From a virus (taxonomy: Duplodnaviria > Heunggongvirae > Uroviricota > Caudoviricetes): DNA of 64,000 bases. The DNA lies in the IMG/VR virus record IMGVR_UViG_3300031992_004563, positions 32,001 through 96,000 of that record; one strand, written 5' to 3'. The notes under the pieces were generated by a model, which saw only the letters and a program-made list of their open reading frames with translations, was not told the DNA's origin and made no database searches. The position numbers and the translations under genes were made by a program. Numbering within the stretch: the first letter of the stretch is position 1; the number at the start of each line of letters is the position of its first letter. Positions 13,871 to 35,736 of this stretch are shown piece by piece.

Positions 13871-13969
13871 ATGATGAAGAGTTTTAAAAATAGTAGATGT
13901 TTTGCAAGCAGTACTTTTAAAAGCACTAGCTGTAAACTTTTTTGGCTCTTTGAGAAGGGTATTCAGTGA
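13871..13969 (+). CDS. Leader peptide of tRNA operon 1 (MMKSFKNSRCFASSTFKSTSCKLFWLFEKGIQ)
   Basis: 21 of 32 residues are K/F/S(AGY)/C/W/L(CTY), matching downstream tRNAs; stop codon lies within the antiterminator strand. Confidence 0.75.
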   Translation: MMKSFKNSRCFASSTFKSTSCKLFWLFEKGIQ

Positions 13970-14064
13970 TTAAAGAAGATTATACATTTTAAGCGATTAT
14001 ATATTTCTTAAGATTAGACATTTACAAAGTTCTTTAGTCACTATGATTAAAGAACTTCATTTTT
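13965..14064 (+). promoter_or_regulatory. Attenuator: antiterminator 13965-13977, terminator 14027-14064
   Basis: AGTGATTAAAGAA and TGATTAAAGAACTT both pair with AAGTTCTTTAGTCA(CT); T run follows; first tRNA starts 5 nt later. Confidence 0.75.
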
Positions 14065-18573: not shown

Positions 18574-18579
18574 TAATTT

Positions 18580-19183: not shown

Positions 19184-19493
19184 ACAAAAACCAAAAATAA
19201 CTTGGAAAAATTTTAAGATTTGGCTTAAAGACCAATTTAGTAGAAAGAGATTTTTCTATAATATGTTTATTAGTAGAAATGCATGGGGTGCATTCTCTAT
19301 TAATTCTCATATTAACCAGCATACTGGACAACCAAAGGTAACATATAATCATTTTAAAACTGCACAAAAATCTGCAGAGAAAATGAGTCAAAAACATAAT
19401 ACTCATTTTAGTGTATATAAATGTTTGTTCTGTGATGGTTATCATATTGGAAAGAATAGAGATAATAAAACAGATTATGATAAACAAAGTTAA
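19176..19493 (+). CDS. Hypothetical Zn-binding protein
   Basis: VYKCLFCDGYHIG. Confidence 0.7.
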   Translation: MNEQKPKITWKNFKIWLKDQFSRKRFFYNMFISRNAWGAFSINSHINQHTGQPKVTYNHFKTAQKSAEKMSQKHNTHFSVYKCLFCDGYHIGKNRDNKTDYDKQS

Positions 19494-19495
19494 TT

Positions 19496-19729
19496 ATGCC
19501 AAGAAAAGTAAATTTTGATGTAACATGTCGTTATGGCATAACATACAATGTAGAACTTCATGGAAGTGAAGGTGCAAAATGGCGTACAGTTGATATGCTT
19601 GGAAGGTGTTGTTGTTTTGTATGCCATAATCATGATTGTAAAGAACCACGCGATGAAAGAATACCATGTTCAATGTGGTGTAAAGTATATGGTGCAAAAA
19701 CACCTTGGTGCGAAGAAACTAAAAAATAA
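19496..19729 (+). CDS. Small Cys-rich protein
   Basis: Operonic, many Cys. Confidence 0.55.
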   Translation: MPRKVNFDVTCRYGITYNVELHGSEGAKWRTVDMLGRCCCFVCHNHDCKEPRDERIPCSMWCKVYGAKTPWCEETKK

Positions 19730-19734
19730 AAATT

Positions 19735-20181
19735 ATGGATATTGGAAGTGGAAATAGTTATCCTAATGCAGCATTATCAAATTTTGCTCCACACCCATTT
19801 GTAATAGATGGAGTTGAATGCAATTCAATGGAAGGATTTTTGCAATCATTGAAATTTGAATCAGTTGATATGCAAAAGTATGTATGCACATTGGTTGGGA
19901 AAGCCGCTAAGTTTAAAGGCAAAAAGAAAAAGTGGTGGAAAACACAAACTCTTTATTGGCAAGGAAAACCAATTACTCGTCAATCTGATGAATATCAAAA
20001 GTTATTAGATAGAGCATATAATGCATTAAATGAAAACTCCAGTTTTCGAAAAGCATTGGAAGCAACCAAAGGATGCACATTAACTCACTCAATAGGAAAA
20101 AGTGATAAAACAAAAACAGTATTAACCCAATCTGAGTTTTGTTCAAGATTAACAAAACTTAGAGATAATGGAAAACTATAA
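19735..20181 (+). CDS. Phage NADAR-family protein (T4 gp30.3-like)
   Basis: ALSNFAPHPFVIDGVECNSMEGFLQSLKF...LYWQG...LTHSIG recognised as the gp30.3/NADAR pattern. Confidence 0.75.
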   Translation: MDIGSGNSYPNAALSNFAPHPFVIDGVECNSMEGFLQSLKFESVDMQKYVCTLVGKAAKFKGKKKKWWKTQTLYWQGKPITRQSDEYQKLLDRAYNALNENSSFRKALEATKGCTLTHSIGKSDKTKTVLTQSEFCSRLTKLRDNGKL

Positions 20182-20834
20182 TGAAAGCAAAATCCCCGGA
20201 TGAATATATTATTACGATCAAATCATGGTCATTAAAAGAGCACAAGCCTCTTAGAAATAAAAAAACTAATGCAAAAGAATTAGTTGATTTTTTAACAAAA
20301 CCTAATTTATGTGGAGATATACCTGTTGTTAAAAGATACATTTCTGGTTCTTCTATTCCATGTGCATATTTGTTTATGATTGATTTGAATTATAATAATT
20401 ATGTTCGTGATTACATTTATTCTATTACACTTATTGGCCATAGCATAAATGTTTACCATAGGTATGACAAAATACATACCAGTTATATATTTAGTTCGGA
20501 AGAATGTGCAAATAAATTTTGGGAAGCTTACATAGAAAATAATAGTCATTTGCTTAAAACTTTATATGTATTGCGTTTTAAAAAAGAATATTTTAAAAAC
20601 GTAGATAAAGTTAAAAATATAAATGGCATGACATTTAAATCAAGATGGGAGATGTATAAGCATCTTGGTGACAAATATGGAGTAGATAGTAAAGATGGCT
20701 GGGTATTTGGGCATGGCTATACTCCATTAATTAGAAAGCAATTATATTTTCCATTTGATGATCCTAAAAATGAATATGAAACTTGTGAAGTTTATTTCAC
20801 ACATGAAGATTCAACACCAATAATTACAACTTAA
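20181..20834 (+). CDS. Hypothetical protein
   Basis: Coupled 217-aa ORF. Confidence 0.7.
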   Translation: MKAKSPDEYIITIKSWSLKEHKPLRNKKTNAKELVDFLTKPNLCGDIPVVKRYISGSSIPCAYLFMIDLNYNNYVRDYIYSITLIGHSINVYHRYDKIHTSYIFSSEECANKFWEAYIENNSHLLKTLYVLRFKKEYFKNVDKVKNINGMTFKSRWEMYKHLGDKYGVDSKDGWVFGHGYTPLIRKQLYFPFDDPKNEYETCEVYFTHEDSTPIITT

Positions 20835-20963
20835 AACATGAAAAGACCAAAATGGTGTGGTGGAAAATACATCCCACAATGTTATAATTTATCATTTAAT
20901 TTGGAAATTACTAAAGGATATTGTAAAAATTGTCAATATTATAAAGAAAAATAAGTATAGAAA

Positions 20964-21012
20964 AACATCTATTTTTTAATATAAACAAAAAGTATTATTT
21001 TTGTATCGTAAA
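20964..21012 (+). promoter_or_regulatory. Class A promoter
   Basis: AACATCTATTTTTT...TATTTTTGTATCGTAAA. Confidence 0.65.
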
Positions 21013-21030
21013 TTTAAAAAGGAATAAATT

Positions 21031-21861
21031 ATGAAACAAACAAAAGGAGATAGCCTTGGAGATCGTATGAAACGATATGAGGCAGTAAGTAAAACAAGTT
21101 TGGTATCTCGTATGCCAGTAATTCTTCGTATTGATGGTTGTCATTTTCACACATTTACAAAAGGATTTGTAAAGCCTTTTGACGAAGTAATGATGAAGTC
21201 AATGCAAGACACTATGAAATATCTTTGTGAGAATATTCAGGGATGCGTTCTTGGATATACACAATCAGATGAGATTACATTGGTTCTTGTTGATTACCAG
21301 AATTTAAATTCATCTGCATGGTTTGATAATGAAGTTCAGAAGATTTGTTCTGTAGCATCTTCAATGGCTAGTATGGTATTTAATAAAGCATTTAAAGAAA
21401 ATTATCAATTAGCTTATTCAATAGATGAGATTAATGATAACACCGTAGATTTTGAAACATATAATAGCCATCAGGCATTGCGTTCAATATATGAACGTGC
21501 AATTACTCGTGGTGCATATTTTGATTGTCGAGCATTTAATGTTCCTAAAGAGGATGTAACAAATTGCGTATTATGGCGTCAACAAGATGCAACCCGTAAT
21601 TCAATTCAATCTGTAGCACAAGCTAATTTTTCACAAAAAGAAATGTTTGGATTAAGTTGTAATAAGCTTCAAGATAAATTGTTTGTAGAAAAGGGAATTA
21701 ATTGGAATGATCTTCCAGTTGAAGAGAAACGAGGTGTATGTTGTGTTAAATCATATTTTACTCAAGATGGAAAAGAACGTTCTAAATGGGTAATTGATTA
21801 TGATATTCCTATTTTCTCGCAAAATCGAGATTATATTGAAAGATTAATTAATTTTGATTAA
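21031..21861 (+). CDS. Thg1-like 3'-5' tRNA polymerase (tRNA-His guanylyltransferase family)
   Basis: RMKRYE, LRIDGCHFHTFT, KPFD, YTQSDEI, FDCR, WRQQDATRNS, GINWN. Confidence 0.92.
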   Translation: MKQTKGDSLGDRMKRYEAVSKTSLVSRMPVILRIDGCHFHTFTKGFVKPFDEVMMKSMQDTMKYLCENIQGCVLGYTQSDEITLVLVDYQNLNSSAWFDNEVQKICSVASSMASMVFNKAFKENYQLAYSIDEINDNTVDFETYNSHQALRSIYERAITRGAYFDCRAFNVPKEDVTNCVLWRQQDATRNSIQSVAQANFSQKEMFGLSCNKLQDKLFVEKGINWNDLPVEEKRGVCCVKSYFTQDGKERSKWVIDYDIPIFSQNRDYIERLINFD

Positions 21862-21862
21862 T

Positions 21863-22147
21863 ATGAAAATAAAATTACATAGAGTAAAACATATTCCAAC
21901 TGGATTATATTACCAGCCAGGTGAAAATAATCTTTCTGAAAAAGGAAAAATATATCAGAATAATCAAGATTGTTTAATGGGTGGACATGGAAATCGTTTA
22001 GGTTTATCGATGTTAAAATCTGCTAAACTTTTGAAAAAACACCTAGAATGGTTCAAAGACTGGGAAGAATCTAGTTGGGATCATAAAAGAATTTTTAAAA
22101 ATGTAAGTTTTAGCGAATTTGAACGAGAAGAAATTAAGACTGAATAA
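21863..22147 (+). CDS. Hypothetical protein
   Basis: KHIPTGLYY; operonic. Confidence 0.65.
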   Translation: MKIKLHRVKHIPTGLYYQPGENNLSEKGKIYQNNQDCLMGGHGNRLGLSMLKSAKLLKKHLEWFKDWEESSWDHKRIFKNVSFSEFEREEIKTE

Positions 22148-22379
22148 TTATGATTTGTGGAAGTAAATGTGAAAATTGTATATATCATCATTCTGGAGAA
22201 GATACTTGTAATTTTACATATTGCATTAAAGAAGAGTATGATGAATATGATGGTGTAGGAAATTATAAAAATAATTATTAATCATGCCAAAGAACTTTGT
22301 AAATATTATGTGTTAGCACAAAGAAATGAGTGACATATAAATATAAAGTTATTTTGGTAGATTTTTAAAAACAAAAATA

Positions 22380-22883
22380 ATGGTTCAGAAAATAATTAAT
22401 ATGCTTGAGCATTTCAAGGAAGTTGCACATTATATTCTTTTAGATGATGCAAATGAAGACCTTGAAAACAAAGAAGAACGATTAAGCCATGCAATAGAAC
22501 AAGCAATTGATAGCAAAATTGCTTGTCTTAAATCTGATTTATATTTAGATAATATGATTAGAACAGATACATGGGATATCATATGTGGGTATTGTGATAA
22601 TTATGATGGAATGGTCGGATGGTTTTGTGATGATGATTCACTTCGTATATATGCATTAGGAAATGAAGGTGGTATTGCACTTATTTTTTATAGAAGTAAA
22701 CAACCTTTAGCAGGAGTTGATAATAGATATGCGAGGCTTCAAATTCATACATTAGGAAAAGATGATGGTGCATATTTTATTGATAGCCAATCTTGTTATA
22801 CTGCATGTCATGGTTCAATAAAAGAATTTTCTATTCTTATGAAAGCTGTGCTCGATAAATTTAATAAATTGGAGAATTTATAA
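22380..22883 (+). CDS. Hypothetical protein
   Basis: 167-aa ORF. Confidence 0.7.
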   Translation: MVQKIINMLEHFKEVAHYILLDDANEDLENKEERLSHAIEQAIDSKIACLKSDLYLDNMIRTDTWDIICGYCDNYDGMVGWFCDDDSLRIYALGNEGGIALIFYRSKQPLAGVDNRYARLQIHTLGKDDGAYFIDSQSCYTACHGSIKEFSILMKAVLDKFNKLENL

Positions 22884-23205
22884 AAATAATTATTAATTAT
22901 GGCAGAAAATCCTTGTTGTAATTGTAGTGAGGTCTATAGAAAAAGACCAAGGTGCAAAAGTCTTAAATGTCCAATGTATTTTGAACATTTAAAAGAAGAT
23001 GAAATTTTTGAAAAGGCTGTAAAAGAAGGATATTTCAAAAAGAAAGTAGATGAATTAAAAGAAAAAGGAGAATTATAATGAAAGCGCATCAAACATTATT
23101 TCAAACAATTGAAAGACCATGTGAGCATTGTATTTATAATGCAGAATGCCCAGATTGGGTTCATGATAAAGATCATTTAAAATGTAAATATTCACAGTGT
23201 TAATT

Positions 23206-24051
23206 ATGAAAGATGGTTGTAAAGAATGTATCGAATCTATTCGAAAACATCCAAGATGCGAAAAATTAAATTGCCCAGTTTTATTTGAAAGTGAAGAACA
23301 AAATAAAAAGGAAGAAAACTATATGAGTGAAGTAAGTAAATATTTTGATAAACAAATTTTGAAATTAGATTCATCTAAGGTAAAAATCTGGTTTACATCT
23401 GATACCCATTTTTCGCATGCAAATATTATCAAATATTGTAATCGTCCATTTTCAAATGAAAAGGAAATGAATGAATATCTTATTGCACGCTGGAATAAAA
23501 TGATTGGGCCAAATGATATTGTTTTTCATCTTGGTGATTTTGCATGGGGTGGTTCGGAAGTTTGGAATAATGTTCTTGACAGATTGAATGGACATATCTA
23601 TTTGATTATTGGTAACCATGATATGAAAAATCTTCGTCAAGGATATATTTCTAAATTTGAATCTGTTGCATTCCAAATGTATGTTTATATTGATGGACGA
23701 GCCGTTTATATGAATCATTATCCATTCCTTTGTTATGGAGGATCATATAGAGGAAAAGATGCTGTATGGCAAGTATTTGGGCATGTTCATTCTAAAAAAG
23801 AACATTATAATATTGAACATATTAATGATGCAGAAGTGAAAGAAATTCTTGGTAAAGATGTTATTCGTCTTCAATATTTAATGCCTACACAATATGATGT
23901 TGGCGTAGATAACAATAACTATACTCCTGTTAGTTGGGAAGAAGTAAAAGAAAAAATCGAGAAACAAATTGAAGATTTTGAATATAATCAAAACAAGAAA
24001 GAATCTTGGTTTAAGAAATTTATTAATAATATTTTAAATCTTTTTAAATAA
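23206..24051 (+). CDS. Calcineurin-like metallophosphoesterase
   Basis: SDTHF, HLGDF, GNHD, NHYP, GHVH, DVGVD; start uncertain (23206 or 23323). Confidence 0.9.
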   Translation: MKDGCKECIESIRKHPRCEKLNCPVLFESEEQNKKEENYMSEVSKYFDKQILKLDSSKVKIWFTSDTHFSHANIIKYCNRPFSNEKEMNEYLIARWNKMIGPNDIVFHLGDFAWGGSEVWNNVLDRLNGHIYLIIGNHDMKNLRQGYISKFESVAFQMYVYIDGRAVYMNHYPFLCYGGSYRGKDAVWQVFGHVHSKKEHYNIEHINDAEVKEILGKDVIRLQYLMPTQYDVGVDNNNYTPVSWEEVKEKIEKQIEDFEYNQNKKESWFKKFINNILNLFK

Positions 24052-24064
24052 AAAATTTTTGATT

Positions 24065-24574
24065 ATGTATTTTTATAGTAAATGGGATAAATTTAAGTAT
24101 TGGTTTAAATTTTGGTGGGTTATTATACTTACTGTGTATTCAATTGGAATATCATATTTATATTTTAGTAAGTTAAATAGTGAACACCCATTAATTTATG
24201 TTACTCGTTATGAACAACATAATGATACTATTAGTGGAAAACTTAGGTTTCATTATAAATATAACCCAGTAATTTATAATGTTATAGAGAATACTGATTT
24301 TATTATTCCAGATGGTATATATGAGGTTCAAAACACTTATTCTCCTAAGTTTAATAAATCAATGCCAATAATTGTAAATGTTCCTGGAAGGGCTGGAATT
24401 AGAATTCATTACGGTTCATGTCCAGAACATTCTAAAGGATGTGTATTGGTAGATGAATATACACTCAATAAAATTATTGAATTTGTGGATAAGAATAAAG
24501 CTAATGAACGAAAAACATTTATATACATAAATACAATTAATTTAATAGATCACAGAAATGAAAAAGGAAAATAA
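24065..24574 (+). CDS. DUF5675-like (L,D-transpeptidase-like) protein with N-terminal TM
   Basis: IPDGIY, SPKF, VPGRAGIRIHYG, HSKGCVLV. Confidence 0.7.
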   Translation: MYFYSKWDKFKYWFKFWWVIILTVYSIGISYLYFSKLNSEHPLIYVTRYEQHNDTISGKLRFHYKYNPVIYNVIENTDFIIPDGIYEVQNTYSPKFNKSMPIIVNVPGRAGIRIHYGSCPEHSKGCVLVDEYTLNKIIEFVDKNKANERKTFIYINTINLIDHRNEKGK

Positions 24575-24705
24575 TCTAAATTGGCCAAATATAAATTTTG
24601 ATTACATATCACTTTATGATAAATGCAGAAATCACCATCCATCTGATTTTGATAAAATAGTAAGATATGTAACAGAACTTCGTAAGAAATATAAAAACCA
24701 ACAAA

Positions 24706-24942
24706 ATGGATAAATTAATTCAATATACTAAAAATTATTTTAAACCATCTAAACAATATACTTCTGTTATTAATATTGATAAAATGGTGGATGAAGCCCA
24801 AGAATGGGTATTAAATATAATTTCTGTTAATAATTGGCCAAGTGGTGGGTTTGATTTAAATTTATTTAGAAAAGAAATGGCTAATTGGTTTTCAGATAAT
24901 TTAGAATATTTTTATAAAGGAGGAGCTTCATATTATTATTAA
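24706..24942 (+). CDS. Hypothetical protein
   Basis: Operonic ORF. Confidence 0.6.
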   Translation: MDKLIQYTKNYFKPSKQYTSVINIDKMVDEAQEWVLNIISVNNWPSGGFDLNLFRKEMANWFSDNLEYFYKGGASYYY

Positions 24943-25044
24943 TTATGAGTGAAAAGAAAAATTATCCAATATGTATTGGACCGGTAGGAACTAAACTTGC
25001 TAAACTTTTTTCTAAATTAATAGAAAAAGAAATAAAAAAGAAAA

Positions 25045-25947
25045 ATGAGTGAATTTGAAGATATAAATATTGATGATATGCTAAAAGGCATAACACCAAA
25101 TTTTGAAGATAATCCTATTGAATATAAAGGATCAACTGTTTTAGAAAAACCAAAGGTTTTAAAGCGGTTGATTCTTGGTGATATTCATGGCCATTGGGAT
25201 AATCTAAAAAAGATATATGATTTGGAAGACCCAGATGAAGTAATTGTTCTTGGCGATTACTTTGATAACTTTAATGGTTCTGACCAAAGCATATATGATT
25301 GTTATCGTGATATTCTACAACTTCGTGGAGATCATTTAGCAAATAAAACTGGTGATTTTATAATGTTAATTGGCAATCATGATTTTCATTACAATCACTG
25401 GTATGAGAAATGTTCTGGGTATCGTTCAAGCATGGCTGTTAAAAATGCAATTATCTTGAATAGCTATTCTCAACATCTTAAGTTTGTATATTTAGATGAA
25501 GTCAATAATACTTTATATTCACATGCAGGTGTAACAAAACATTGGCTAAAAGAAAATCTTCAAGATAAGTATGATAAAGATTCATATAAGTATATAAATG
25601 AAATGAATCATAATGCATTTAAATTTACTTATAAAGGTGACACTGGACGTTCTGGAAATTCAATATATGCTAGTCCTATTTGGTGTCGTCCACAATCATT
25701 AAATCTTGATGCAATTGATAATGAAAATGGAGAACCAATAGTTCAGATAGTTGGACATACACATTGTGATTTTCCATTATGTTATAATTTTCAAGGATAT
25801 GAAATGCCTGATGATTTAGATATAATTAATGAACATTTTAATGATGTAAAAATTTATATAATGGATACAATGCCAAAGTATTATATGGTTGAAGAGCTTG
25901 ATGAAAATAGAAAGATTATTAAACGTGTTATAAAACAATTGGCATAA
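25045..25947 (+). CDS. Calcineurin-like metallophosphoesterase
   Basis: GDIHG, GDYFD, GNHD, SHAG, VGHT. Confidence 0.9.
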   Translation: MSEFEDINIDDMLKGITPNFEDNPIEYKGSTVLEKPKVLKRLILGDIHGHWDNLKKIYDLEDPDEVIVLGDYFDNFNGSDQSIYDCYRDILQLRGDHLANKTGDFIMLIGNHDFHYNHWYEKCSGYRSSMAVKNAIILNSYSQHLKFVYLDEVNNTLYSHAGVTKHWLKENLQDKYDKDSYKYINEMNHNAFKFTYKGDTGRSGNSIYASPIWCRPQSLNLDAIDNENGEPIVQIVGHTHCDFPLCYNFQGYEMPDDLDIINEHFNDVKIYIMDTMPKYYMVEELDENRKIIKRVIKQLA

Positions 25948-25981
25948 TTTATATATAATTTAAAAATAAAGTGTAAAAACT

Positions 25982-26563
25982 ATGGCATACGAAGTATATT
26001 TTAGAAACATACCAGAAGATGTTATGGAAAAGTACAATCATAAAAATAAAGGTACTTTTAATCGATTTGGTGGTGCTCAAGAATATAAATTAGCATTATT
26101 AATTTATACAATGCAAAAATCTAAAGATAATGATAATGATATATTAAGGGTTGTTAAGGATTGTGCATTTAATATTAAATTATATTTAGGTGGGCTTCAA
26201 TTAGAAGTTGATAAAAGAGAAGAACAATTTGCATATGATAGATGGAAAGAAGAAAATGGAGAGCTTTGGTATTGCGGAAATAATTATGAAGATGCATATG
26301 ATCTTAATGAATACAGAACAAATTTAATAAATGATACAGTTGAGAACTTAGCAATTCTTAAATATTGTGCAGAATCTGGAAATTATTTTGATGAACACAA
26401 TCATCATTATGAAAAAGTTAGAGAAATTCGAGAAATTCTTGATAATTTTGAAACAGAAATGCAAGAAATTAAAGTTGCTGAAATTGAAAAAGAATTAAAG
26501 GATTATCGAGTTCCAGATTCTGATTATAATGATATAAAAGAAGAATTAGAAAATAAAGATTAA
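25982..26563 (+). CDS. Hypothetical protein
   Basis: 193-aa ORF. Confidence 0.7.
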   Translation: MAYEVYFRNIPEDVMEKYNHKNKGTFNRFGGAQEYKLALLIYTMQKSKDNDNDILRVVKDCAFNIKLYLGGLQLEVDKREEQFAYDRWKEENGELWYCGNNYEDAYDLNEYRTNLINDTVENLAILKYCAESGNYFDEHNHHYEKVREIREILDNFETEMQEIKVAEIEKELKDYRVPDSDYNDIKEELENKD

Positions 26564-26582
26564 CTAATTAAAATTAAAAATT

Positions 26583-27278
26583 ATGAAACTATTTGAAAAC
26601 ATTAAACAACTTTATTCTAAGTATGATTTGTATATTGAACGTACATTTTGGCTTATAATTTTAGGTGTAATATTTGTATGTGCAATTATTGATATTAGTT
26701 ATAAAGTACAATATTCAAATAAAGAATCTAATAAATATAACCCATTATATGTGCAAACATGTATGTATACATTAAAATATGATGCAGCTAAATTAGAATT
26801 AGCTAATGAGGTTGATAAGTATATTAAAAATATTGCATCACAATCAGCATTAGATGGATATGTTATTGTTGAGGAATGTTTAAATAGCGGAATTGATATT
26901 TGTTTTGTATTAGCACAAGGAGAGCAAGAATCACATTTTGGAACTACAGGTTTAGCAAGACGAACAAATTCTGTATTTAATGTATATGCATTTGACGGCC
27001 AATCACATGATGAAATTTCAAACAAAGGCAAATACAAACACCCTAATTATTCTGTGGCACCATATATAGAATTATTAAAGAAAGATTATTTGGTGAATGG
27101 AAAGACTGAATATGACCTAATGGATGGACAATATGTTAATAAAGATGGAAAACGATATGCAAGTTCTGAAACATATGAAAAAGCATTATTGAGTAAATAT
27201 ACTAAAATTAGACAGGACACAAAAATTGATTCATTATGTCAAGAAACAAACAAATACAAACTTTTTCTTGGGATTTAA
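26583..27278 (+). CDS. Membrane-anchored glucosaminidase-like (lysozyme-fold) hydrolase
   Basis: N-terminal TM; LAQGEQESHFGT, NSVFNVYAFD, RYAS. Confidence 0.75.
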   Translation: MKLFENIKQLYSKYDLYIERTFWLIILGVIFVCAIIDISYKVQYSNKESNKYNPLYVQTCMYTLKYDAAKLELANEVDKYIKNIASQSALDGYVIVEECLNSGIDICFVLAQGEQESHFGTTGLARRTNSVFNVYAFDGQSHDEISNKGKYKHPNYSVAPYIELLKKDYLVNGKTEYDLMDGQYVNKDGKRYASSETYEKALLSKYTKIRQDTKIDSLCQETNKYKLFLGI

Positions 27279-27374
27279 ATAAATAATAAAATTTCTTTAA
27301 TAAATAAAAAGAGCAAATAAACTTTTTTATACATTTGACTAAAATAAATAAATAGAAAAATAAATAAATTACAA

Positions 27375-27491
27375 ATGCTACAAAATTATAAGGAACATAT
27401 GAATACCATTATTCTTGGTGGAAATGAACAACGACCATCAACAGTGTCTTCATCTGCTGCCTATAATAATGATGCACGATATGTGAGGTAA
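27375..27491 (+). CDS. Leader peptide of tRNA operon 2 (MLQNYKEHMNTIILGGNEQRPSTVSSSAAYNNDARYVR)
   Basis: 38 aa using 17 amino acids, no F/C/W, Ser only TCN; antiterminator strand starts right after the stop. Confidence 0.75.
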   Translation: MLQNYKEHMNTIILGGNEQRPSTVSSSAAYNNDARYVR

Positions 27492-27557
27492 AACCCAATG
27501 AAATAGAGATACACTAAAGTTCCTTGGGTTGAAAAACTTAAGGAACTTTAAATTTTT
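27492..27557 (+). promoter_or_regulatory. Attenuator: antiterminator 27492-27502, terminator 27515-27557
   Basis: AACCCAATGAA competes with AACTTAAGGAACTTTA for TAAAGTTCCTTGGGTT; GAAA loop; T run. Confidence 0.72.
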
Positions 27558-27559
27558 AT

Positions 27560-27609
27560 AACTTCTATTTTTTAGATTAAATAAAAAGATATAATTTTGT
27601 ATCGTCAAT
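27560..27609 (+). promoter_or_regulatory. Class A promoter
   Basis: AACTTCTATTTTTTAGATT...TAATTTTGTATCGTCAA. Confidence 0.75.
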
Positions 27610-27641
27610 TTCAAAAAGGCGTTCTTTAACAAATTGAAACA

Positions 27642-27745
27642 TGGTTGGTAGTTTATCCCGTAGATAAAACAATAAGCCTTTACCCAATAGCGCTATTAAG
27701 TAATGTAAGTCTTATAGAAGTCAGGTGCGAATCTGGCCCGACTGC
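27642..27745 (+). ncRNA. tRNA-like RNA with extended anticodon arm
   Basis: TGGTTGG/CCGACTG acceptor; T-like arm GTCAG GTGCGAAT CTGGC. Confidence 0.5.
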
Positions 27746-27769
27746 AAATAAAAAATATGAACAAAATTT

Positions 27770-27816
27770 AACTTCTATTTTTTAGATTAAAATAAAAGTA
27801 ATAATTTTGCATCACA
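27770..27816 (+). promoter_or_regulatory. Class A promoter
   Basis: AACTTCTATTTTTTAGATT...TAATTTTGC. Confidence 0.7.
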
Positions 27817-28325
27817 TTTGGAAAATAATGGTAATTTTTAAAAAAGATTATTTCATTATAAACTTTTTTGAAAAACCTTATATAAATTATAAATGCAACA
27901 GAGAAATCTGAAAACATTTTAAAAAGAGATCTTTGACGTATTGAGATTAGAAATTAAAAGAAAGAAATTTAATTGCCTAACTGAAATCCTGAAATATGGT
28001 TGCTAACCGTCAATTGTGGATCACACCACATAGTAATGGGAACCAGAGGGAAGGCAATACAATTATATAGCCAACATTCTTCCTGTGAAGGTTTTTTAGT
28101 TGGCAATTCGCCAACGCTTTGACGCAACAAGCGTTACCCTTAAGGGATTAGGAGTTGAGTCAATATTGTGAGGGAAAACACATAGAATTGACCCTATATG
28201 GGTTGATAAAACCTTTCTCGTTAAATTAGTCATTTGTACTATGATGCTTCGAGGACAATAAGAGAGATAGGTTGAGCAACCCTATCAAACCTTAGTTGAA
28301 ATAAACAACTATAAAAATATAAATC

Positions 28326-28426
28326 TTGGTAAAGTGGGTGAGCGTCTTGTAACTCAAGAAGAGAGCTCCTCTTAAACGGGTGGCGAGTGTCCAGAATAAC
28401 CAATCTCTGATATAGGCTTTACCAAA
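28326..28426 (+). ncRNA. Stem-closed structured RNA between two pseudoknot repeats
   Basis: TTGGTAAAG/CTTTACCAA closing stem; internal hairpins. Confidence 0.45.
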
Positions 28427-28874
28427 TCTAATAGTTGAAAGAAACAACTTTAAAAACTGTATAATAGAAATATTATATTTTATCTACTTTTGTAGATGCG
28501 TAATGATATAATACATATTGTTACAAAGTTTATAAGTGTTAGGATTGGAAGTGTCCATACTTAATGAGTGGTTGCCCACCGGATCTATTAAGGCCCATCG
28601 GTAACAGATGGAAACTCAACTTAGTCGGATAAATGGAAAAAGAAACTTTAAGTTCAATTTTGTACGAGTATGACTGAAAAGGGATTGTGCAAAATATATT
28701 TACCTTTGGTGTAATAACACGCTTATAAATCATTTTTATTTTACCATAGTGTATGAAACTATCTCGGTATAGAATGCACGCCTCAAGTAGGAAGGCTGGT
28801 TAGAACAGCAGGTAAAATAACAAGTTTAAGGTTCCTGCTTATAAACCTTTGACAATCTGGAAAGACAGATGACT

Positions 28875-28946
28875 GGGAGATTAGTATATCGGTTATTACG
28901 CTGGCCTGTTAAGCCATGAAGCCTGGTTCGACTCCAGGATCTCCCG
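28875..28946 (+). tRNA. tRNA-Asn(GTT)
   Basis: GGGAGAT/ATCTCCC; loop CTGTTAA; TTCGACT. Confidence 0.88.
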
Positions 28947-29307
28947 CAGGTCCTGGTTTCTTTAGTGGAGATAAAATTACATGGCGATTAAAAAGACGAA
29001 ACTCCACAAATTTTTAAGCTAATCAGCCTAGTCTGAAAAGTAAGGTCAGTGTTTAGTCATTGGTAAAACGTCAATTCGTACGCCTGAAATAAAGATACTT
29101 AGCTTAAGTTTTCCGGATAACACCGGAGGTACATCTTCAAGCTTAGAAGAGACGAAGCACTGGATTTTACCAGTAGTAGCGAGGGGCGGTTCCTCGGAAG
29201 ATGGCAAAAATTCCAAAACTCTTGCTACAACAAGATGAGGTGGCGTTTATATAAACTATTTGTAATTGGTTGTAGACTTTTACAAACAAGTATATGTTCG
29301 AAAAATT

Positions 29308-29381
29308 GGAACATGGTGTAAGAGTGGTGAGCACGCTGGTTGTGAAGACCGGAGACTGGTGTGGTTCGATTCCCCCGCCCA
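29308..29381 (+). pseudogene. Degenerate tRNA-like sequence
   Basis: D-like arm, CTGGT/ACCGG stem, GGTTCGATTCC; acceptor stem does not pair. Confidence 0.35.
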
Positions 29382-29586
29382 AACTAAAATCCATAAGTTT
29401 AGTAGTATCTTATACGCGTTAAAAAACTACTCGGGTTTATAGCCCCAACCTGAATTTTAATATATTACTGATGGGGCATTTCAAACTGAGCGAGTAAACA
29501 CTGCAATGTTGAAACACTCTGGCGTTCATAATATATTAGTAAATCATTGCTTGCAGGTTTTGATCGAAAGTTGAATGTTCGTAAAA

Positions 29587-29704
29587 TGATAATGGTGTAA
29601 ATTGGACAGCACGCCCCATGGTGGGGAGGTAGAAGACCAAGGTTGGGCAGCCGTAAAACCGAAAGGGGAACCTGGTGGCAGTTGGTTCGAGTCCGCTTTA
29701 TCAA
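29587..29704 (+). ncRNA. tRNA scaffold with 3-nt TGG anticodon loop and ~50-nt variable insert
   Basis: TGATAA/TTATCA; GTGT/GCAC D stem; CCCCA TGG TGGGG; GG TTCGAGT CC. Confidence 0.6.
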
Positions 29705-30106
29705 CAACGTAGTTATATAGGACGCTATATAACGAACAGACTACATGGATGAAGGAAAGCCGCCTCCACAAGGAAGGAGAAACCAGGATCGAAACTGGGG
29801 GTAGTCCTAAATTTTCTCTAAGTCCAATTTTTTAGAGTGATAGCTTTGTATACCAAGCGAAGAAGGTGGGGTATTACGGATGTGAAGATTCCTTTGAGAA
29901 TAAATTCTTGCGCAAGGGTTTATTTGAAATGCATTCAAAAATTGTAGTGATAATGGACATCCAAAAACAATTAAAGAATCTTATTTTTGGCGGAGGCCAC
30001 TAATCCTCTTAGCCAGTGTATAAGTCCTATTACGTGAACGGAGACCCACATTAAACGACCTTTAATAGGCGGCATGTACAGTGAACGGTGAATCACTATA
30101 AAAACG

Positions 30107-30193
30107 CGTTGATGGTACACATTTAGAAAGAACCATACAAGGAACGATATTAGTGGTCAGGTCCCAAGAGAGATAAACACACTAGGCTCTCAA
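30107..30193 (+). ncRNA. Three-hairpin ncRNA family, copy A
   Basis: CGTTG-H1-ACAA-H2-CA-H3(GAGAG..TAG..CTCTC)-AA, shared with 32589 and 32886. Confidence 0.55.
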
Positions 30194-30531
30194 TTTTATT
30201 AAAGGTTAAACACTGAGTGACGCTGGATGGCGTTCCTAAGGGTGTCGGGTAAGTGCATCAAAGGCTAAGCGAAGCATAACAGCCACATTTAAAGGGTGAT
30301 TAGCTAGTTCCCTCATTTTATAATGATTTTATATTAATAATAAGTTTTTTGAGTAAAAACAAAAAGAAACTCAATTCTTTAATTACAATGTTAATTGAAG
30401 TCTTATCTTTACCACCGGAGGTTGTTATACCACGGGCTTATTTTAGAAATTAGAAAGTAAGAGTTTTAATTATGTTTTTTAAGGTTTCTTTTCCTAATTT
30501 TCTTTAACTGACTAAAGTAAAATTTGAAACC

Positions 30532-30612
30532 GCCTCAATGGGACAGTTGGTCGACTCCGCCACCCTTGTAATGTGGAATTATACATCGTCGGTTCGAATC
30601 CGGCTTGAGGCT
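30532..30612 (+). tRNA. tRNA-Thr(TGT)
   Basis: GCCTCAA/TTGAGGC; loop CTTGTAA; enlarged variable loop. Confidence 0.82.
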
Positions 30613-30677
30613 CAAAAGATTACAATTTTTTGTAATTGATTTGAAATAAATATAATATAAAAGAAATATTATTATTT

Positions 30678-31709
30678 ATGAGAATGAGAAATGGTTTAAG
30701 TGAAAGTGAAGCTGGAAAATTAGGAGCTATTGCTGCAAAAAAGATTTATGAAGAACGTAAATTAAAAGCAATTCAAATATATAATGAAAATCCTAATTTA
30801 TGTGCTTATTGCAATAACCCAATTCCATATATAAAACGTGGAAATAAATGTTGTTGTCAAAGTCATTCAGTTTCATATTCAAATTTACAAAGAACACCTG
30901 AACAAAATAAAAAGAAAGCATAGAGTATTAAAAAATATTATGAAAATAAATTAGTAATTAAAGATAATATACATGATCGTAAAGTATTTACAAAACCAGA
31001 AGATATCGAAAAACATAGAAAGATAAAATATTGTAAATATTGTGGTTGTGAAAAAGGTAAATGTATTGATGAATATGTATGTAAAAAACATCAAATATTT
31101 AAAACTTTAGAAAAATTTGGATTTGATAATTCAAAAATTGGAACAGTTGATATAGTAGATGAATATTATAAAATAAGAAATATAATTTTAGATTTTTATT
31201 TAAAAAATGGTTCAGATGAAACATTATTAAAAGATTAGTTTAATTATATTTCGGGTGGAGCAAATTTTCATAAAATATTAAAATCTTTAGATATTAATAG
31301 TAGAAATCAATCTGATGCTCAATAGTTTTCTATTGAGCATAATAGAAGAGATTTAATTCCAGTAGGAATACATTATAAATTTAAAGATGAATATCATATA
31401 ACATGGGATAATAGAGAAGTTTATTTACGATCAAGTTATGAAACTGATTTTGCAAATGAACTTGATAATAAACAAATTTATTATGAAGTAGAAACATTAA
31501 GAATAAAATATTTTGATACACAAAGGAATCAATTTAGATTAGCAGTTCCTGATTTTTATCTACCTGAAACAAATATGATAATTGAAATAAAATCTATATT
31601 TACTTTAGACATTCAAAATATGAAAGATAAAGTTAAAGCATATAAAGATTTAGGATATAATTTTAAATTAATTCTTGAACATCAAGAAGTTGATTTAAAT
31701 TCATTATAA
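30678..31709 (+). CDS. Free-standing PD-(D/E)xK (TnsA-like) endonuclease, 343 aa with TAG=Gln
   Basis: 3 in-frame TAG; Cys clusters; YLRSSYE, VPDFYL, IIEIKS. Confidence 0.82.
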
Positions 31710-31711
31710 AT

Positions 31712-31828
31712 AAGTGTAAAAGATATCGGTTCGAATCCGGCTCGCACGGAAGCAGAGAGTCAGACTTCCAAGTGATAGTTGGCCTGAAATTGGTCTTAGA
31801 ATATAATTGGCCTAAAACATTTACACTT
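31712..31828 (+). ncRNA. Circularly permuted tRNA-like element
   Basis: Order: AAGTGTAAA, T arm, TCGC, linker hairpin, GTGA-TA, D-like region, TTTACACTT. Confidence 0.5.
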
Positions 31829-32114
31829 TAAACTATAAAATCCAAATATGACTAGTTTGGTTGACACCATGAAAGAATGGTCCGCTATAGGGTGATGTAG
31901 TCGTTTGCAGACCCGTTAGTTTACCGTTAAAGATCCACGGGATGCATGGTTAATTGGTTTTACCGCAGGATGGAGATTAGTCACTTCAAAACCAAACCTT
32001 AGTAAGAAGATGCAAATTCCGAACAGTGGCTTGGGGAAATATAATTGCATGTTTATTTCCCTATAATCCAATAGTTGAGAAAACAACTTAAATAAATCAA
32101 AGTAAATTTACTTC

Positions 32115-32196
32115 AGCGAGATAGTTTAATATTTGCTACCAGAATACTGTGCACATGACACAGTGGATGTCAGTTGAAGTCTGGCTCTCGCAACCA
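32115..32196 (+). tRNA. Atypical tRNA-Met-like (CAT) with encoded CCA
   Basis: A1-A72 mismatch; CTGTG CACATGA CACAG; T loop TTGAAGT; ACCA end. Confidence 0.65.
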
Positions 32197-32588
32197 ATAG
32201 TTGATGTAAACAACTTTAAAAACCAATATTAAACCACGAAAAAGACTAGAGTTACAGCGATTTCCAGTAGCCGAGGACGAAGCCGTGTGGGTCACCATTG
32301 AAATCAAGACCTCTTCTAGTGAGAAGGGTGACATTACTCTCTGGAATTTACGAGTAATGGGATGGGCCAAAAACAACACTATGTGGTTTATACTTATAGT
32401 TGAAGGAAAACAACTTTAAAAAAGACAATAACCTATGAATAATTAGGTGCGTTAAACCAGCTACACAAATGCTGTATGTGATAGTGATAAAATGCAGCCA
32501 TGGAGGCTAACAAAAAGATTGCAAGCTTTTTGAATGCATTAATAACTTCCATGATTAAATAGTTGAAGGACATACAACTTTAAAAACC

Positions 32589-32671
32589 CGTTGGTGTTTC
32601 AGCGGATACAAACACACAAAGGGAGCGTCGGCCGAGTCCACAGAGGGTTGAACCCGTAGACCCTCAAACTT
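32589..32671 (+). ncRNA. Three-hairpin ncRNA family, copy B
   Basis: GTGTTT/AAACAC, ACAAA, H2, GAGGGT/ACCCTC, AAACTT. Confidence 0.55.
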
Positions 32672-32885
32672 ATAGTTGAGGTACAACAACTGAAAAAACC
32701 AATAAAAGTATTATAACTGAAGTTATTTTACTACGTTAACATATCCACAACCGTATATCTTGAAAAATAGTGGTGGTTCACAAAACAAATGTTTATCATT
32801 CGAATAATTCATAAGTATCCATGGAAGGCTTATGATGCGGATACTGTTAATATTTTATAGTTGAGGGACAACAACTTACCAAACC

Positions 32886-33007
32886 CGTTGATGGCTCAGT
32901 GCTGGAATATGCGAGTTGGAACCATACAAAGTGCGGTTACGTTACGAGGCACCACGAGAGTTGATTGGGTATCAGGTATTTAACCGTCGGACTAGACTCT
33001 CAAACTT
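32886..33007 (+). ncRNA. Three-hairpin ncRNA family, copy C
   Basis: ATGG/CCAT, ACAAA, GTGC/GCAC, GAGAGT/ACTCTC, AAACTT. Confidence 0.55.
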
Positions 33008-33103
33008 ATAAAATATCTTATTTAAGGGCTGTCTTAAGGACACTTTGGATAGGGTGGAGAATACATAAAAAGAGTATTCGTATAAAATAAGATATTTTAA
33101 TAT

Positions 33104-33177
33104 TGCCCTGTAGCTCAATTGGCTAGAGCGTCTGATTTTGGTTCAGAAGGTTGGGGATTCGAACTCCTCCAGGGCAA
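33104..33177 (+). tRNA. tRNA-Gln(TTG)
   Basis: TCTGA TTTTGGT TCAGA; U1-A72. Confidence 0.88.
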
Positions 33178-33184
33178 CATAGTG

Positions 33185-33273
33185 AAATATATAGCTCAAT
33201 GATGGCGCACTAAAACATGTAGAGCACCGGCCAGTTAAGTCGGCGATATGAGGTTTGATTCCCATTATATTTT
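33185..33273 (+). tRNA. Atypical tRNA-Asn(GTT) with enlarged D loop
   Basis: CCGGC CAGTTAA GTCGG; all-AT acceptor; 24-nt D loop. Confidence 0.6.
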
Positions 33274-33370
33274 GAATCGGTCACTGATATTGTCAGGAAG
33301 CAATTTCTGGCTGGGATATAAAAGTATCACACTGATAAACTATTTTGAAACTTATATATAAATTATATTA

Positions 33371-33660
33371 TATTAGTAAAACTAAAGAGATAAAGAAAAA
33401 TATAGTTAGACCAAATCTGACTGAATTTAGAGAGTTATATCTTAAGTCATTGGAAGAATTTGAGTTATAGCCAATTTATAAAGATTTGATTGAACTATAT
33501 TATGAATTCAAAAAGTCTAAACTTAAGTATAGACTTTCTATAGACTAGTTTGATCTATAGTTTTCTAGTTTAAACTCATCTAAATCTAATAAGTGCATTT
33601 ATATTTTGATTCTTTTGAATTTTTGTTCTAAAAGTTATAAAATTGTATAAATGTTAATAG
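33371..33660 (+). pseudogene. 3'-only remnant of a TnpB gene of the 2206/7794 family (candidate stand-alone omegaRNA)
   Basis: Translates YISKTKEIKKNIVRP...KSLEEF...YYEFKKSKLKYRLSIDQFDLQFS, matching the TnpB C-terminus; no start or RuvC motifs. Confidence 0.8.
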
Positions 33661-33753
33661 TTTAAATACCTAATAAACAATATTGCATAAGGATGTTCCT
33701 ATTTTATAATCACAAAGTTTGATTGCAGTTCATACTCCTCGCAATATTTAAAT

Positions 33754-33826
33754 TGGGAGATCAGCTAATCGGTTAGGCTTCATCTCTGATAAGGATGCCA
33801 TCCGGGTTCAAGTCCCGGTCTCCCAA
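33754..33826 (+). tRNA. tRNA-Ile(GAT)
   Basis: CATCT CTGATAA GGATG. Confidence 0.85.
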
Positions 33827-33870
33827 CAAATGAAACAATTTAATATATTTGTAATATAATATATAAATAA

Positions 33871-33945
33871 CGGGTAGTAGTTCAGTCCGGTTAGAATGCT
33901 GCATTTGGGATGCAGAGGTCGTGAGTTCGAATCTCGCCTACCCGA
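33871..33945 (+). tRNA. tRNA-Pro(TGG)
   Basis: CTGCA TTTGGGA TGCAG; C1-G72. Confidence 0.92.
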
Positions 33946-34532
33946 CAAAATAATAATTAAAAATATTGTTTAATGCATTTGGGCGAGAAGCATTGAACGA
34001 TTGATGCTCATCCTGAACAATGGTTTGACTCCAATACGTCCATGCTAAACGGCAATATAAAATAAGGATTTATTATTAAATAATAGAAAATAATAATTCA
34101 ATGTCTCTCATGTTAGGCGATCAGGTACAGAGACGGATGATTATAGATAGTATAATTTGTTAATTAAAAAGTCGGTGCAAATCCGGCGTAAAATTTAAAA
34201 AATAATTTAATTTTTGCACATAGTATTAAATTATAATTTGTTGTTAAATAAAAGTGCAATATAAAAATTAAATTATAATACATAAATTTTAAATAGATTT
34301 AAATGAAATTGAATTATTATTTAAATTTCCAAGTAAATTTAAAAATCGCTAATATGCTCGGATAGGTATAAGCATACATTAATTCGATGGCCAAATGATT
34401 AATTATGAGTTGGTGGGTGATTATATTGAAAATTGCATATTGAAAAGGAGCAAATTTAATAGAGAAATATTATAATTATTTGTTTAATTATAATAGAGTA
34501 GCTCGCAACAATTATTTTCCGAATTTTTAAAT

Positions 34533-34675
34533 GGCCCATTCGTCTATCGGCTAGGACGCCAGATTTACGTTGGAAAGAAAACCATACTATTAAAAACTCC
34601 AGTTTGGAATATAATATTTGATTATATTATATTTCACTCATTCTGGAAAGAGCAGTTCGATTCTGCTATGGGCTA
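34533..34675 (+). tRNA. tRNA-Glu(TTC) with ~71-nt anticodon intron (34567-34637)
   Basis: CCAGA TTT [insert] TCAT TCTGG; spliced arm equals that of the adjacent intact tRNA-Glu. Confidence 0.85.
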
Positions 34676-34699
34676 CTTTACAATTAAAATTAAAAATAT

Positions 34700-34778
34700 G
34701 GATCATTCGAATATCGGTTAGTTCGCCAGATTTTCATTCTGGAAAGGTTTTAGGGTTCGACTCCCACATGATCTACCA
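34700..34778 (+). tRNA. tRNA-Glu(TTC)
   Basis: CCAGA TTTTCAT TCTGG; encoded CCA. Confidence 0.85.
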
Positions 34779-34897
34779 AATTAAACTTGCAATCCAACGA
34801 TTACTATATGTAAGTTCGGGATTTGGATGGGCACTACCAAACGGACCGAGAACCGCGTGCATTCGAGATTGGTGACGGTGTGGAGAGACACACTCTT

Positions 34898-34972
34898 GGT
34901 CCGGTAGCTCAGTGGTGTAGTAGCAGGACACTCATAATGTCAAGGTCGGGGGTTCAAATCCCTCTCGGACCA
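34898..34972 (+). tRNA. tRNA with CAT anticodon (Met or Ile2)
   Basis: GGTCCGG/TCGGACC; loop CTCATAA. Confidence 0.82.
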
Positions 34973-35350
34973 CGTGAAAAACCGTAGTGTATACTTTATA
35001 TGTTTCACCAAAATGCGGTAACCTCCATATGCCGGCAAACATAAAATATGGCAAGGACAAAGTGAAAACGTATTTTCAGAAAAAAGTTGAAATTATATAC
35101 TGAATGTAATAGAGTCTGGTCATGGCCTGACATTTTGTAGGAGAGTTAACTATTCTGCAAGGTCATATGGAATCAACCCAGTGAAAGACTACGTATATAT
35201 CTCATGAGATTTCAACTTCATTATGGTGCTCTTCTAGAGAGCATGCGGGACAGCGACGTGGCAACCGCAGTGGAAGATTCTCTTCTCCAATAAATACTAG
35301 GCGTCTCCAATAGTTGAAATATGGATAACAACTATAAAACCATATAATAT

Positions 35351-35422
35351 AGCGGGGTAGAGCAGTGGTAGCTCGTCAGGCTCATAACCTGAAGGCCGGG
35401 GGTTCGAATCCCTCCCCCGCAA
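35351..35422 (+). tRNA. Initiator tRNA-fMet(CAT)
   Basis: 1-72 mismatch; GAGC/GCTC D stem; TCAGG CTCATAA CCTGA. Confidence 0.9.
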
Positions 35423-35427
35423 CAGAG

Positions 35428-35527
35428 GCCCATGTCTGAAATGGCTTGCAGGTTCGAGTCCTGTCTTTGGTGTTTCATCATTTTATGGTGTTCCTACCGA
35501 GGTGGCGAAAGTGGTAAACGCGTGGGT
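35428..35527 (+). tRNA. Circularly permuted Leu-type tRNA gene (3' half first, break in anticodon loop)
   Basis: GCCCA, long variable arm, T arm, CTTTGGT-G, 23-nt linker, ACCGAGG, TG, GCG..GGTAAA..CGC, G, TGGGT. Confidence 0.75.
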
Positions 35528-35736
35528 AAGATTGTTGTTGGCTATAACAACATTAAACAAATATAGCAACTTTAACTAATATATTATGTTAGACACTAAT
35601 TATATTCCTTAAATGAAAAGTAAAGTATTGAGTAATAGAATACATGAGGGTTCGTACCCTGGAGTAGAAATCGACCAAGAAATGCATATAATTATATGGG
35701 TGCAACTCCCATAATAATATTTTAGTTAATCATATT

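Follow-up and report, generated by a model that had tools for sequence, protein, structure and literature searches.

A candidate ribosome-mediated attenuator at the entry of a tRNA gene array in a Lak-like megaphage

What does a 38-codon mini-gene with a strong hairpin behind it do at the entry of a large phage tRNA gene array? The question is raised by leader 2, an element of a Lak-like rumen megaphage that lies within bases 32001-96000 of a 380,519-base virus record (IMGVR_UViG_3300031992_004563). This 64,000-nucleotide stretch is referred to here as the window, and positions are counted from its first base. The window holds two tRNA gene arrays, and ahead of each lies a short leader open reading frame (ORF) with a terminator: leader 1 for array 1 and leader 2 for array 2 (Table 1). 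An initial annotation had described leader 2 as an attenuator whose codon content is complementary to that of leader 1, and as a putative sensor of any missing tRNA of array 2. Our preferred explanation, held with modest conviction, is that leader ORF 2, the AACCC block behind its stop codon and the hairpin probably constitute a ribosome-mediated transcription attenuator at the array 2 entry. The stronger claim, that this sensor is tuned to the tRNA set of its array, is put forward tentatively.

Reading frame, terminator and predicted antiterminator of leader 2

Copies of leader 2 were collected from the DNA around relatives of the upstream gene (26583-27278, a PF01832 glucosaminidase), at 11 viral-contig loci and 49 metagenome-contig loci. 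The leader 2 region is present at 7 of these 60 loci, and an eighth relative (L130) was obtained with a DNA-pattern scan. Together with the window this gives nine copies in three clades: the window, L020 and L025 (96-99% identical); L024 alone (73% identity); and L009, L021, L022, L023 and L130 (66-69% identity).

The leader proves to be conserved, in keeping with the functional role that had been assigned to it: all nine copies retain an ORF of 37-38 codons with an identical ATG and an identical AGG-TAA end. In four of them (the window clade and L024) the frame is open under translation table 11. The five clade-3 copies require TAG as a sense codon, and all five carry an in-frame TAG four codons before the ORF end. 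This is consistent with the TAG-sense code of the genome, in which in-frame TAG occurs in 116 of the 179 ORFs of at least 250 codons (bounded by TAA or TGA), with up to 33 per ORF. A MAFFT alignment has three gaps within leader ORF 2, each of 3 nt, and gaps of any length in the flanks. Within a 20-nt core that encodes GEQRPS, the sole change is at the synonymous third base of the Arg codon. Of the codon differences between the window and L009, 11 are non-synonymous and 3 synonymous, and third positions are not over-represented among them. Given this drift outside the core, selection acts on the frame and the short core, and not on most residues. The ATTACA that had been noted before the ATG is not retained in relatives.

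The terminator hairpin has a predicted energy of -19 to -22 kcal/mol across all copies. In a consensus fold of eight sequences its 16 pairs are retained, bar one foot base pair in one sequence, and double-sided changes affect three pairs (AU/UA, AU/GC, UA/CG), single-sided changes four (GU/GC/AU). A simple terminator scan of 13400-29000 (15.6 kb) returned 10 sites, against 4.5 expected, and the two longest stems were those behind leader 2 and leader 1.

The 11 bases directly behind the stop codon, AACCCAATGAA, can pair at 10 of 11 positions with TTCCTTGGGTT (27520-27530) in the 5' arm of the terminator, and the antiterminator and the terminator would therefore be mutually exclusive. This pairing had been pointed out in the initial annotation and goes beyond chance. 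Pairing energies between the 16 nt from the stop codon and the terminator 5' arm were compared with those of spacer shuffles, and leader 2 gave -10.8 kcal/mol in the window (P = 0.007), -11.4 kcal/mol in L024 (P = 0.0015) and -7.4 kcal/mol in L009 (P = 0.033; with the whole L009 spacer, -9.4 kcal/mol and P = 0.03). Leader 1 gave -9.1 kcal/mol in the window (P = 0.0035) and -9.3 kcal/mol in its relative G001 (P = 0.0015). A genome-wide control was drawn from 475 hairpin-plus-T-tail sites in the 380-kb record, 96 of which lie 10-60 nt behind the stop codon of an ORF with 25 or more codons. Leader 2 ranks first among these 96 sites (-10.8 kcal/mol) and leader 1 second (-10.7 kcal/mol, which differs from the -9.1 kcal/mol above by slightly different arm limits); the third site reaches -5.3 kcal/mol and the median is -1.45 kcal/mol. 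Stop-adjacent complementarity is therefore specific to the two mini-genes ahead of the two tRNA arrays, and because this control supports the switch we regard leader 2 as a likely ribosome-mediated attenuator. The anatomy first proposed for it holds up, with a conserved frame, a covarying terminator and a stop-abutting antiterminator that is a genome-wide outlier.

Conservation extends into the antiterminator. A(A)ACCC right after TAA is invariant in all nine copies, and the longer block GAGGTAAA(A)CCC is likewise unchanged, even across its six terminal, non-coding bases, and the spacer behind it varies. When partial transcripts were folded as far as the terminator 5' arm, seven of seven shared the pairings A(A)ACCC(A):(U)GGGUU(U) and G(G)AA:UUC(C). 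The arm shared by both structures carries a T-to-C change in L024. The terminator has a compensating change, and the antiterminator makes up for the A-U pair that it loses with a new G-C pair.

In the mechanism that we propose, a ribosome at the last codons or at the stop codon would cover AACCCAATGAA, the terminator would form, and transcription entering from upstream would stop near 27552-27559. If the ribosome were held up more than about four codons before the stop codon, AACCCAATGAA would stay free to capture TTCCTTGGGTT once the latter is made and before the 3' arm follows. With the antiterminator formed, the polymerase would read on into the tRNA-like gene and array 2. We infer that it is the ribosome footprint that masks the antiterminator at the stop codon. 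Any slowly decoded codon would therefore raise read-through, and because many codon types are used, leader 2 would report general decoding speed and not the supply of one amino acid.

If this is true, a device classically devoted to amino-acid supply would respond to the speed of decoding as such and set tRNA output accordingly. It would also account for the way in which megaphages that are AT-rich and recode TAG adapt their tRNA supply to a host of differing codon usage. The switch comprises three short elements within 190 bases and is directly testable.

Table 1. Positions of the leader elements and associated features in the window
Feature	Position	Strand	Remarks
Leader ORF 2	27375..27491	+	38 codons and TAA; MLQNYKEHMNTIILGGNEQRPSTVSSSAAYNNDARYVR
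Predicted leader 2 antiterminator, AACCCAATGAA	27492..27502	+	Starts right after TAA
Intrinsic terminator hairpin of leader 2	27515..27550	+	16 pairs, GAAA loop
T-rich tail of leader 2 terminator	27551..27559	+	Directly 3' of the hairpin
A/T-rich element, AAATAAACTTTTTT...AATAAATA	27315..27360	+	Candidate promoter; contains a block that is unchanged in 8 of 8 aligned copies
Class A promoter motif 1, AACTTCTATTTTTTAG...TAATTTTG	27560..27605	+	Within 10 nt of the terminator; 28 further genome matches
tRNA-like small RNA	27643..27747	+	Acceptor stem and T-arm in consensus fold; first gene past the terminator
Class A promoter motif 2	27770..27815	+	Motif match
Leader ORF 1	13871..13969	+	32 codons and TGA; MMKSFKNSRCFASSTFKSTSCKLFWLFEKGIQ; ahead of array 1
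Leader 1 antiterminator, TGATTAAAGAAG	13967..13978	+	Overlaps the stop codon
Leader 1 terminator	14027..14057	+	Directly before tRNA-Trp (14069), no promoter between
tRNA-Val(TAC)	39682-39757	+	In array 2 in the window

Codon content of the leaders and the tRNA arrays

If leader 2 senses decoding, its codons might be expected to follow the tRNAs behind it, and the initial annotation had proposed that they do. ARAGORN predicts 30 tRNA genes in the window, with array 1 at 14069-16294 and array 2 at 28875-46310. Trp-CCA, Cys-GCA and Phe-GAA were located in array 1, where they had been placed; the Phe tRNA is an Rfam hit (14703-14775) whose anticodon loop was read by eye as GAA. Array 2 holds Leu-TAG, Lys-CTT, Gln-TTG, Glu-TTC, Pro-TGG and Ser-TGA, as had been claimed for the cognates of leader 2 codons. 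Of the two Gly tRNAs in that claim only Gly-TCC was found, and the Arg-CCT-like tRNA, at 39308-39377, looks atypical and was called by ARAGORN only when its settings were relaxed. Array 2 also has a Lys-TTT tRNA (44801-44886), its D-loop bearing an insertion, and Lys-TTT is thus in both arrays. The Trp-CCA tRNAs of the relatives G001 and G002 have an insertion before the T-arm (L125:4577-4666; L134:1588-1678). Such insertions are in line with the short tRNA 'introns' reported in Lak phages (PMC6784885).

The composition read from leader ORF 2 at the outset is correct: the 38 codons specify 17 amino-acid types without Phe, Cys or Trp, all four Ser codons are TCN, and CTA, AAG, AGG, CAA, GAA, CCA, GGT and GGA are present. 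The partition drawn from it, complementary to leader 1, does not by itself exceed chance and is not conserved. In a simulation that drew 37 codons from genome codon usage (277 long ORFs), at least 17 amino-acid types occurred with P = 0.41 and the absence of Phe, Cys and Trp with P = 0.058; among 85,271 real 37-codon stretches of this genome, 8.6% lack these three. Codons served by array 1 only (Trp, Phe, Cys, Ser-AGY and Leu-CTY; genome frequency 0.109) number 1 in 37 against 4.0 expected (P = 0.077-0.09), and range from 0 to 3 in eight copies, L130 being left out (P = 0.016-0.44). An earlier P of 0.005, in which Lys-AAA counted as an array-1 codon, was withdrawn because a Lys-TTT tRNA is also in array 2. 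In the relatives, a Phe codon occurs in L020, which is 99% identical to the window, L024 carries Phe, Cys and CTC, and AGY-Ser is found in four of the five clade-3 copies. Codons of array 2 are not enriched in leader 2, and its rare-codon bias (P = 0.013-0.13 across copies) is too weak to be used. The invariant AGG is a rare codon, at 0.12% of genome codons, and would be one candidate should particular codons dominate.

Leader 1 follows a clearer logic. In the window, 21 of its 31 codons specify Lys, Phe, Cys or Trp or are Ser-AGY or Leu-CTY, the array 1 set (P = 1e-8), a density that no long gene attains over any 37 codons. The leader 1 relatives in G001, G002 and L135 keep this bias, with 19, 18 and 19 of 32 codons, respectively. 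Leader 1 resembles leader 2 in its stop-adjacent antiterminator. Of the two instances in the window leader 2 is the weaker, given the promoters behind its terminator and its unclear codon logic. As separate observations on leader 1, clade-3 copies of both leaders have an in-frame TAG near the end (L009:4304-4414 and others), at which position leader 1 of the window has CAG. A 59-codon ORF and a class A promoter also lie between the shared upstream element described below and leader 1 (13637-13816); both are absent from G002, and the ORF is absent from G001 and L135 too.

A change in array content allows the two leaders to be compared directly. The tRNA-Val(TAC) of array 2 in the window is found in array 1 of G001, G002 and L135. 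The G001 and window genes share 92% identity, and in array 2 of G001 the slot between Leu-TAG and Arg-ACG is empty. The gene could be placed in the window and these three relatives, its location not being visible on six short contigs. Val codons number 0 in leader 1 of the window and 4, 3 and 3 in leader 1 of G001, G002 and L135. In leader 2 they number 2 in the window, 2 in L020, 4 in L025 and 2 in L024, and 0, 0, 0, 0 and 1 in clade 3. The shift runs in the predicted direction in both leaders.

A second comparison is provided by Prevotella phage Lak-B2 (MK250021.1), in which two leader-terminator modules lie directly ahead of two large tRNA arrays (L174:1208-1420 and L177:1165-1387) and the amino acids of each leader suit the array behind it. 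The leader of the smaller array has a 42-codon ORF (L174:1208-1336) and a 14-pair terminator, with tRNAs for His, Pro, Arg-ACG, Arg-CCT, Gly-TCC, Gly-GCC, Cys and Met behind it; 19 of its 41 codons specify His, Pro, Arg, Gly, Cys or Met (P = 9e-6, with codon frequencies of the window genome as a stand-in). The leader of the larger, 19-tRNA array has a mixed 37-codon ORF (L177:1165-1278) and a terminator before tRNA-Trp. It contains no His, Pro or Gly (P = 0.021), but does contain one Cys. It is the closest analogue of leader 2, with a mixed composition in which the other array's amino acids are avoided. Lak-B2 is a second, independent lineage with this two-leader design. A near-identical promoter-like stretch precedes both of its modules.

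All four leaders combine a mini-ORF of 32-42 codons with a strong hairpin before a tRNA array, and there is no sequence similarity among them. Leader 1 and the small-array leader of Lak-B2 are strongly enriched in the codons of their own arrays, whereas leader 2 is not. The terminators of leader 1 and of the Lak-B2 leaders directly precede a tRNA, whereas that of leader 2 precedes a promoter. The comparison of leaders with arrays across Lak-like genomes that the initial annotation had suggested thus lends indirect support to leaders that follow their arrays, through the tRNA-Val move, a single event with an exception in G002, and through Lak-B2. It is possible, though less likely than not, that Lak-type megaphages exert decoding-speed feedback on their own tRNA supply, every array being fronted by a mini-ORF-terminator switch whose codon set follows the array. 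In such a scheme, which we offer as speculation, leader 2 might be the broad, many-codon sensor of a large array, raising array transcription when phage-type codons are decoded slowly.

Known attenuators and competing explanations

Ribosome-mediated attenuators are best known from trpL, hisL, leuL, thrL and ilvL of enterobacterial amino-acid operons, where leader-peptide attenuation senses amino-acid supply for biosynthetic operons. Leader 2 resembles these in its short ORF, its intrinsic terminator and an alternative hairpin that excludes the terminator, and the position of a ribosome near its stop codon would decide the structure. The distance from its stop codon to the terminator end (about 60 nt) is of the same order as in trp. 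It differs in that tRNAs and small RNAs, not biosynthetic enzymes, lie behind it, and in that its antiterminator abuts the stop codon. Because promoters intervene and there is neither a protector (1:2) hairpin nor a run of regulatory codons, leader 2 is not filed as a plain leader-peptide attenuator.

The leader of pheST (pheM) and the T-box leaders of aminoacyl-tRNA synthetase genes adjust a translation component through attenuation that follows tRNA or its charging state, and leader 2 would likewise adjust a component of the translation apparatus. Unlike leader 2, pheM uses Phe codons only, and T-box RNAs, which lack an ORF, are direct binders of uncharged tRNA. To our knowledge, neither is known to control tRNA genes. 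A T-box riboswitch was considered for the present locus and rejected, as 27200-33200 has no Rfam T-box match at E up to 1 and the region is an ORF. Among the listings and abstract openings returned by a full-text literature search there was no account of attenuators ahead of tRNA genes, and the main texts of two Lak papers (PMC6784885, PMC8346664), as far as these were seen, contain none of the terms 'attenuat', 'leader', 'terminator' and 'promoter'.

Several observations weigh against attenuation at leader 2. In every clade seen, two class A promoters (27560 and 27770) separate the terminator from the first tRNA. The caution with which the initial annotation had mentioned them stands: array 2 is independent of read-through, and the switch could gate only transcripts that come from upstream. 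Folding of the copies revealed no upstream protector hairpin and no conserved ORF-internal partner for 27492-27502, and leader ORF 2 has no run of regulatory codons. Because AACCC:GGGTT never varies, it offers no covariation test of the antiterminator, and the energies of the partial transcripts are unexceptional against dinucleotide shuffles (z of -1.8 to +0.5). The codon partition is not beyond chance and is broken in relatives. The Val shift is a single evolutionary event, and leader 2 of G002 has one Val codon (GTA) although its tRNA-Val is in array 1. The contigs from RNA libraries, described below, may include DNA and show neither transcript ends nor levels. The GEQRPS core, finally, is kept at the amino-acid level, which could fit a peptide with a function of its own.

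This last point leads to the most serious competitor, namely that leader ORF 2 is an ordinary small-protein gene at the end of its operon. Its peptide would act in trans, the hairpin would end the glucosaminidase operon and shield the promoters behind it, and the stop-adjacent pairing would be non-regulatory. The ORF does close a same-strand gene run that starts at a class A promoter at 20966, a promoter stands immediately behind the terminator, and the core changes only at a synonymous Arg base. A profile of the nine leader 2 peptides matched seven proteins at E <= 0.001 among 1.84 billion representatives. Six of these are small peptides, 33-38 residues long, that share the core [G/D/A]EQRPS[T/N] and in which the N-terminal MQNY[K/R]EH also recurs (profile E-values 1.5e-18 to 7.8e-4); the seventh, a repetitive protein of 292 residues, was discounted. 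Four of the six small peptides contain Phe and two contain Cys. Such a gene would not be expected to place first of 96 in stop-adjacent complementarity, with only the other tRNA-array leader comparable, nor to hold the non-coding A(A)ACCC invariant. Changes outside the core are mostly non-synonymous (11 against 3 synonymous differences between the window and L009) and do not favour third positions, and no PHROG family matches the peptide of leader 2 or that of leader 1. We judge a plain small-protein gene to be unlikely, though it deserves to be kept in view.

An attenuator may also be driven by the peptide itself. Here, as with TnaC or SpeFL, a ligand or factor would cause EQRPS to arrest the ribosome and thereby free the antiterminator, and codon content would be irrelevant. 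TnaC, SpeFL and ErmCL share with leader 2 a conserved short peptide and a translation state that controls a downstream decision. They act through Rho or through unmasking of a ribosome-binding site, unlike leader 2 with its stop-adjacent intrinsic terminator. The preservation of the core at the amino-acid level amid drifting flanks would suit arrest, and so would the geometry, since a ribosome arrested at codons 18-22 would leave 27492-27502 uncovered. Leader 2 nevertheless matches no known arrest motif and comes with no candidate ligand, and in leader 1 and both Lak-B2 leaders the logic is one of codon content, so that we consider peptide-driven arrest improbable. That the region is an untranslated RNA element or a chance ORF, conserved for its RNA structure or as a promoter-proximal element, is highly improbable: its small size and the lack of an evident Shine-Dalgarno sequence speak for it, but the frame is open in all nine copies of three clades with 3-nt gaps only, the consensus fold has no supported structure inside ORF 2 (just weak, invariant or broken pairs), and Rfam at E up to 1 returned for 27200-33200 only tRNAs and two weak unrelated matches, none in the leader. 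Ribosome-mediated attenuation, responsive to decoding, remains the explanation that we favor.

Promoters, transcripts and genome context

The class A motif occurs 11 times on the plus strand of the window, in 9 cases immediately ahead of a protein gene, and we take it to resemble the Bacteroidetes -7 box, TAnnTTTG. A scan for sigma-70-type promoters was uninformative, with 126 found against 111 expected. The order of terminator, promoter, small RNA and promoter is retained in the relatives whose contigs reach far enough. The tRNA-like small RNA received no call from ARAGORN or Rfam, and about 1 kb without ORFs separates the second class A promoter from the tRNA-Asn at 28875. The A/T-rich element upstream of leader 2 has a counterpart ahead of leader 1, where a near-identical element of about 40 nt (TAAACTTTTTT..AATAAATAATAAAA) is found in the window (13538-13580), G002 and L135; the element shared ahead of both leaders may represent a second promoter class. 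TAAACTTTTT was rejected as a general promoter motif, as its 15 genome copies lie in mixed contexts.

Contigs assembled from RNA libraries span leader ORF 2 in X3, X4 and X21, and one X3 contig bridges 26540-28253 across the terminator. In X4, contigs lie at 27373-27487 and 27903-28558 and none covers 27492-27855; this gap was not used as evidence, nor were the contig depths of 20.6 (glucosaminidase), 56.6 (leader) and 158 (27903-28558). Contig ends at 27373 coincide with a masked repeat at 27340-27372. The stretch 27903-28558 under these contigs is ORF-free and G+C-richer and has no Rfam match. Sequencing-adapter sequence directly flanks 27903 in X4 and 28253 in X3, a hint that the RNA may have defined ends there.

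The record as a whole has a G+C content of 28%. In the phage collection the glucosaminidase matched only 15 records of Prevotella phages Lak-A, Lak-B and Lak-C, at 32-38% identity, and on this basis we regard the virus as a distant Lak-like megaphage. Its host is presumably a Bacteroidota bacterium, given the relation to Lak phages. ARAGORN found no tRNA with a CTA anticodon in the 380-kb record (76% complete), despite the use of TAG as sense in most long genes. The gene order around the glucosaminidase is not retained in Lak-A1 or Lak-B2, and the leader 2 profile has no match in either of the two.

Further searches for relatives returned little. A blastn search of 26500-29000 against the phage collection gave no match, and a single-protein scan of viral contigs found none. 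The DNA pattern GAACAACGNCCATCAA had 48 matches, two of them on relatives' contigs (L092 and L094). The pattern GAGGTAAA...TTCCNTGGGTT had four viral matches, two of them genuine, and 35 matches on genome contigs, none alike by blastn; the C-terminal pattern had four matches, none genuine. Four sequencing runs, all labelled sheep gut, share half or more of the words sampled from 26000-29000, and two of these runs may be where the window comes from.

The region appears to have been exchanged between lineages. L025, with a leader 96% identical to that of the window, bears the clade-3 version of the tRNA-like RNA, and the region is therefore mosaic. Over window 26583-27640, the glucosaminidase of L025 is 58% identical to that of the window, against 96% for the adjoining leader region, a contrast that suggests recombination of lineages at the leader 2 locus.

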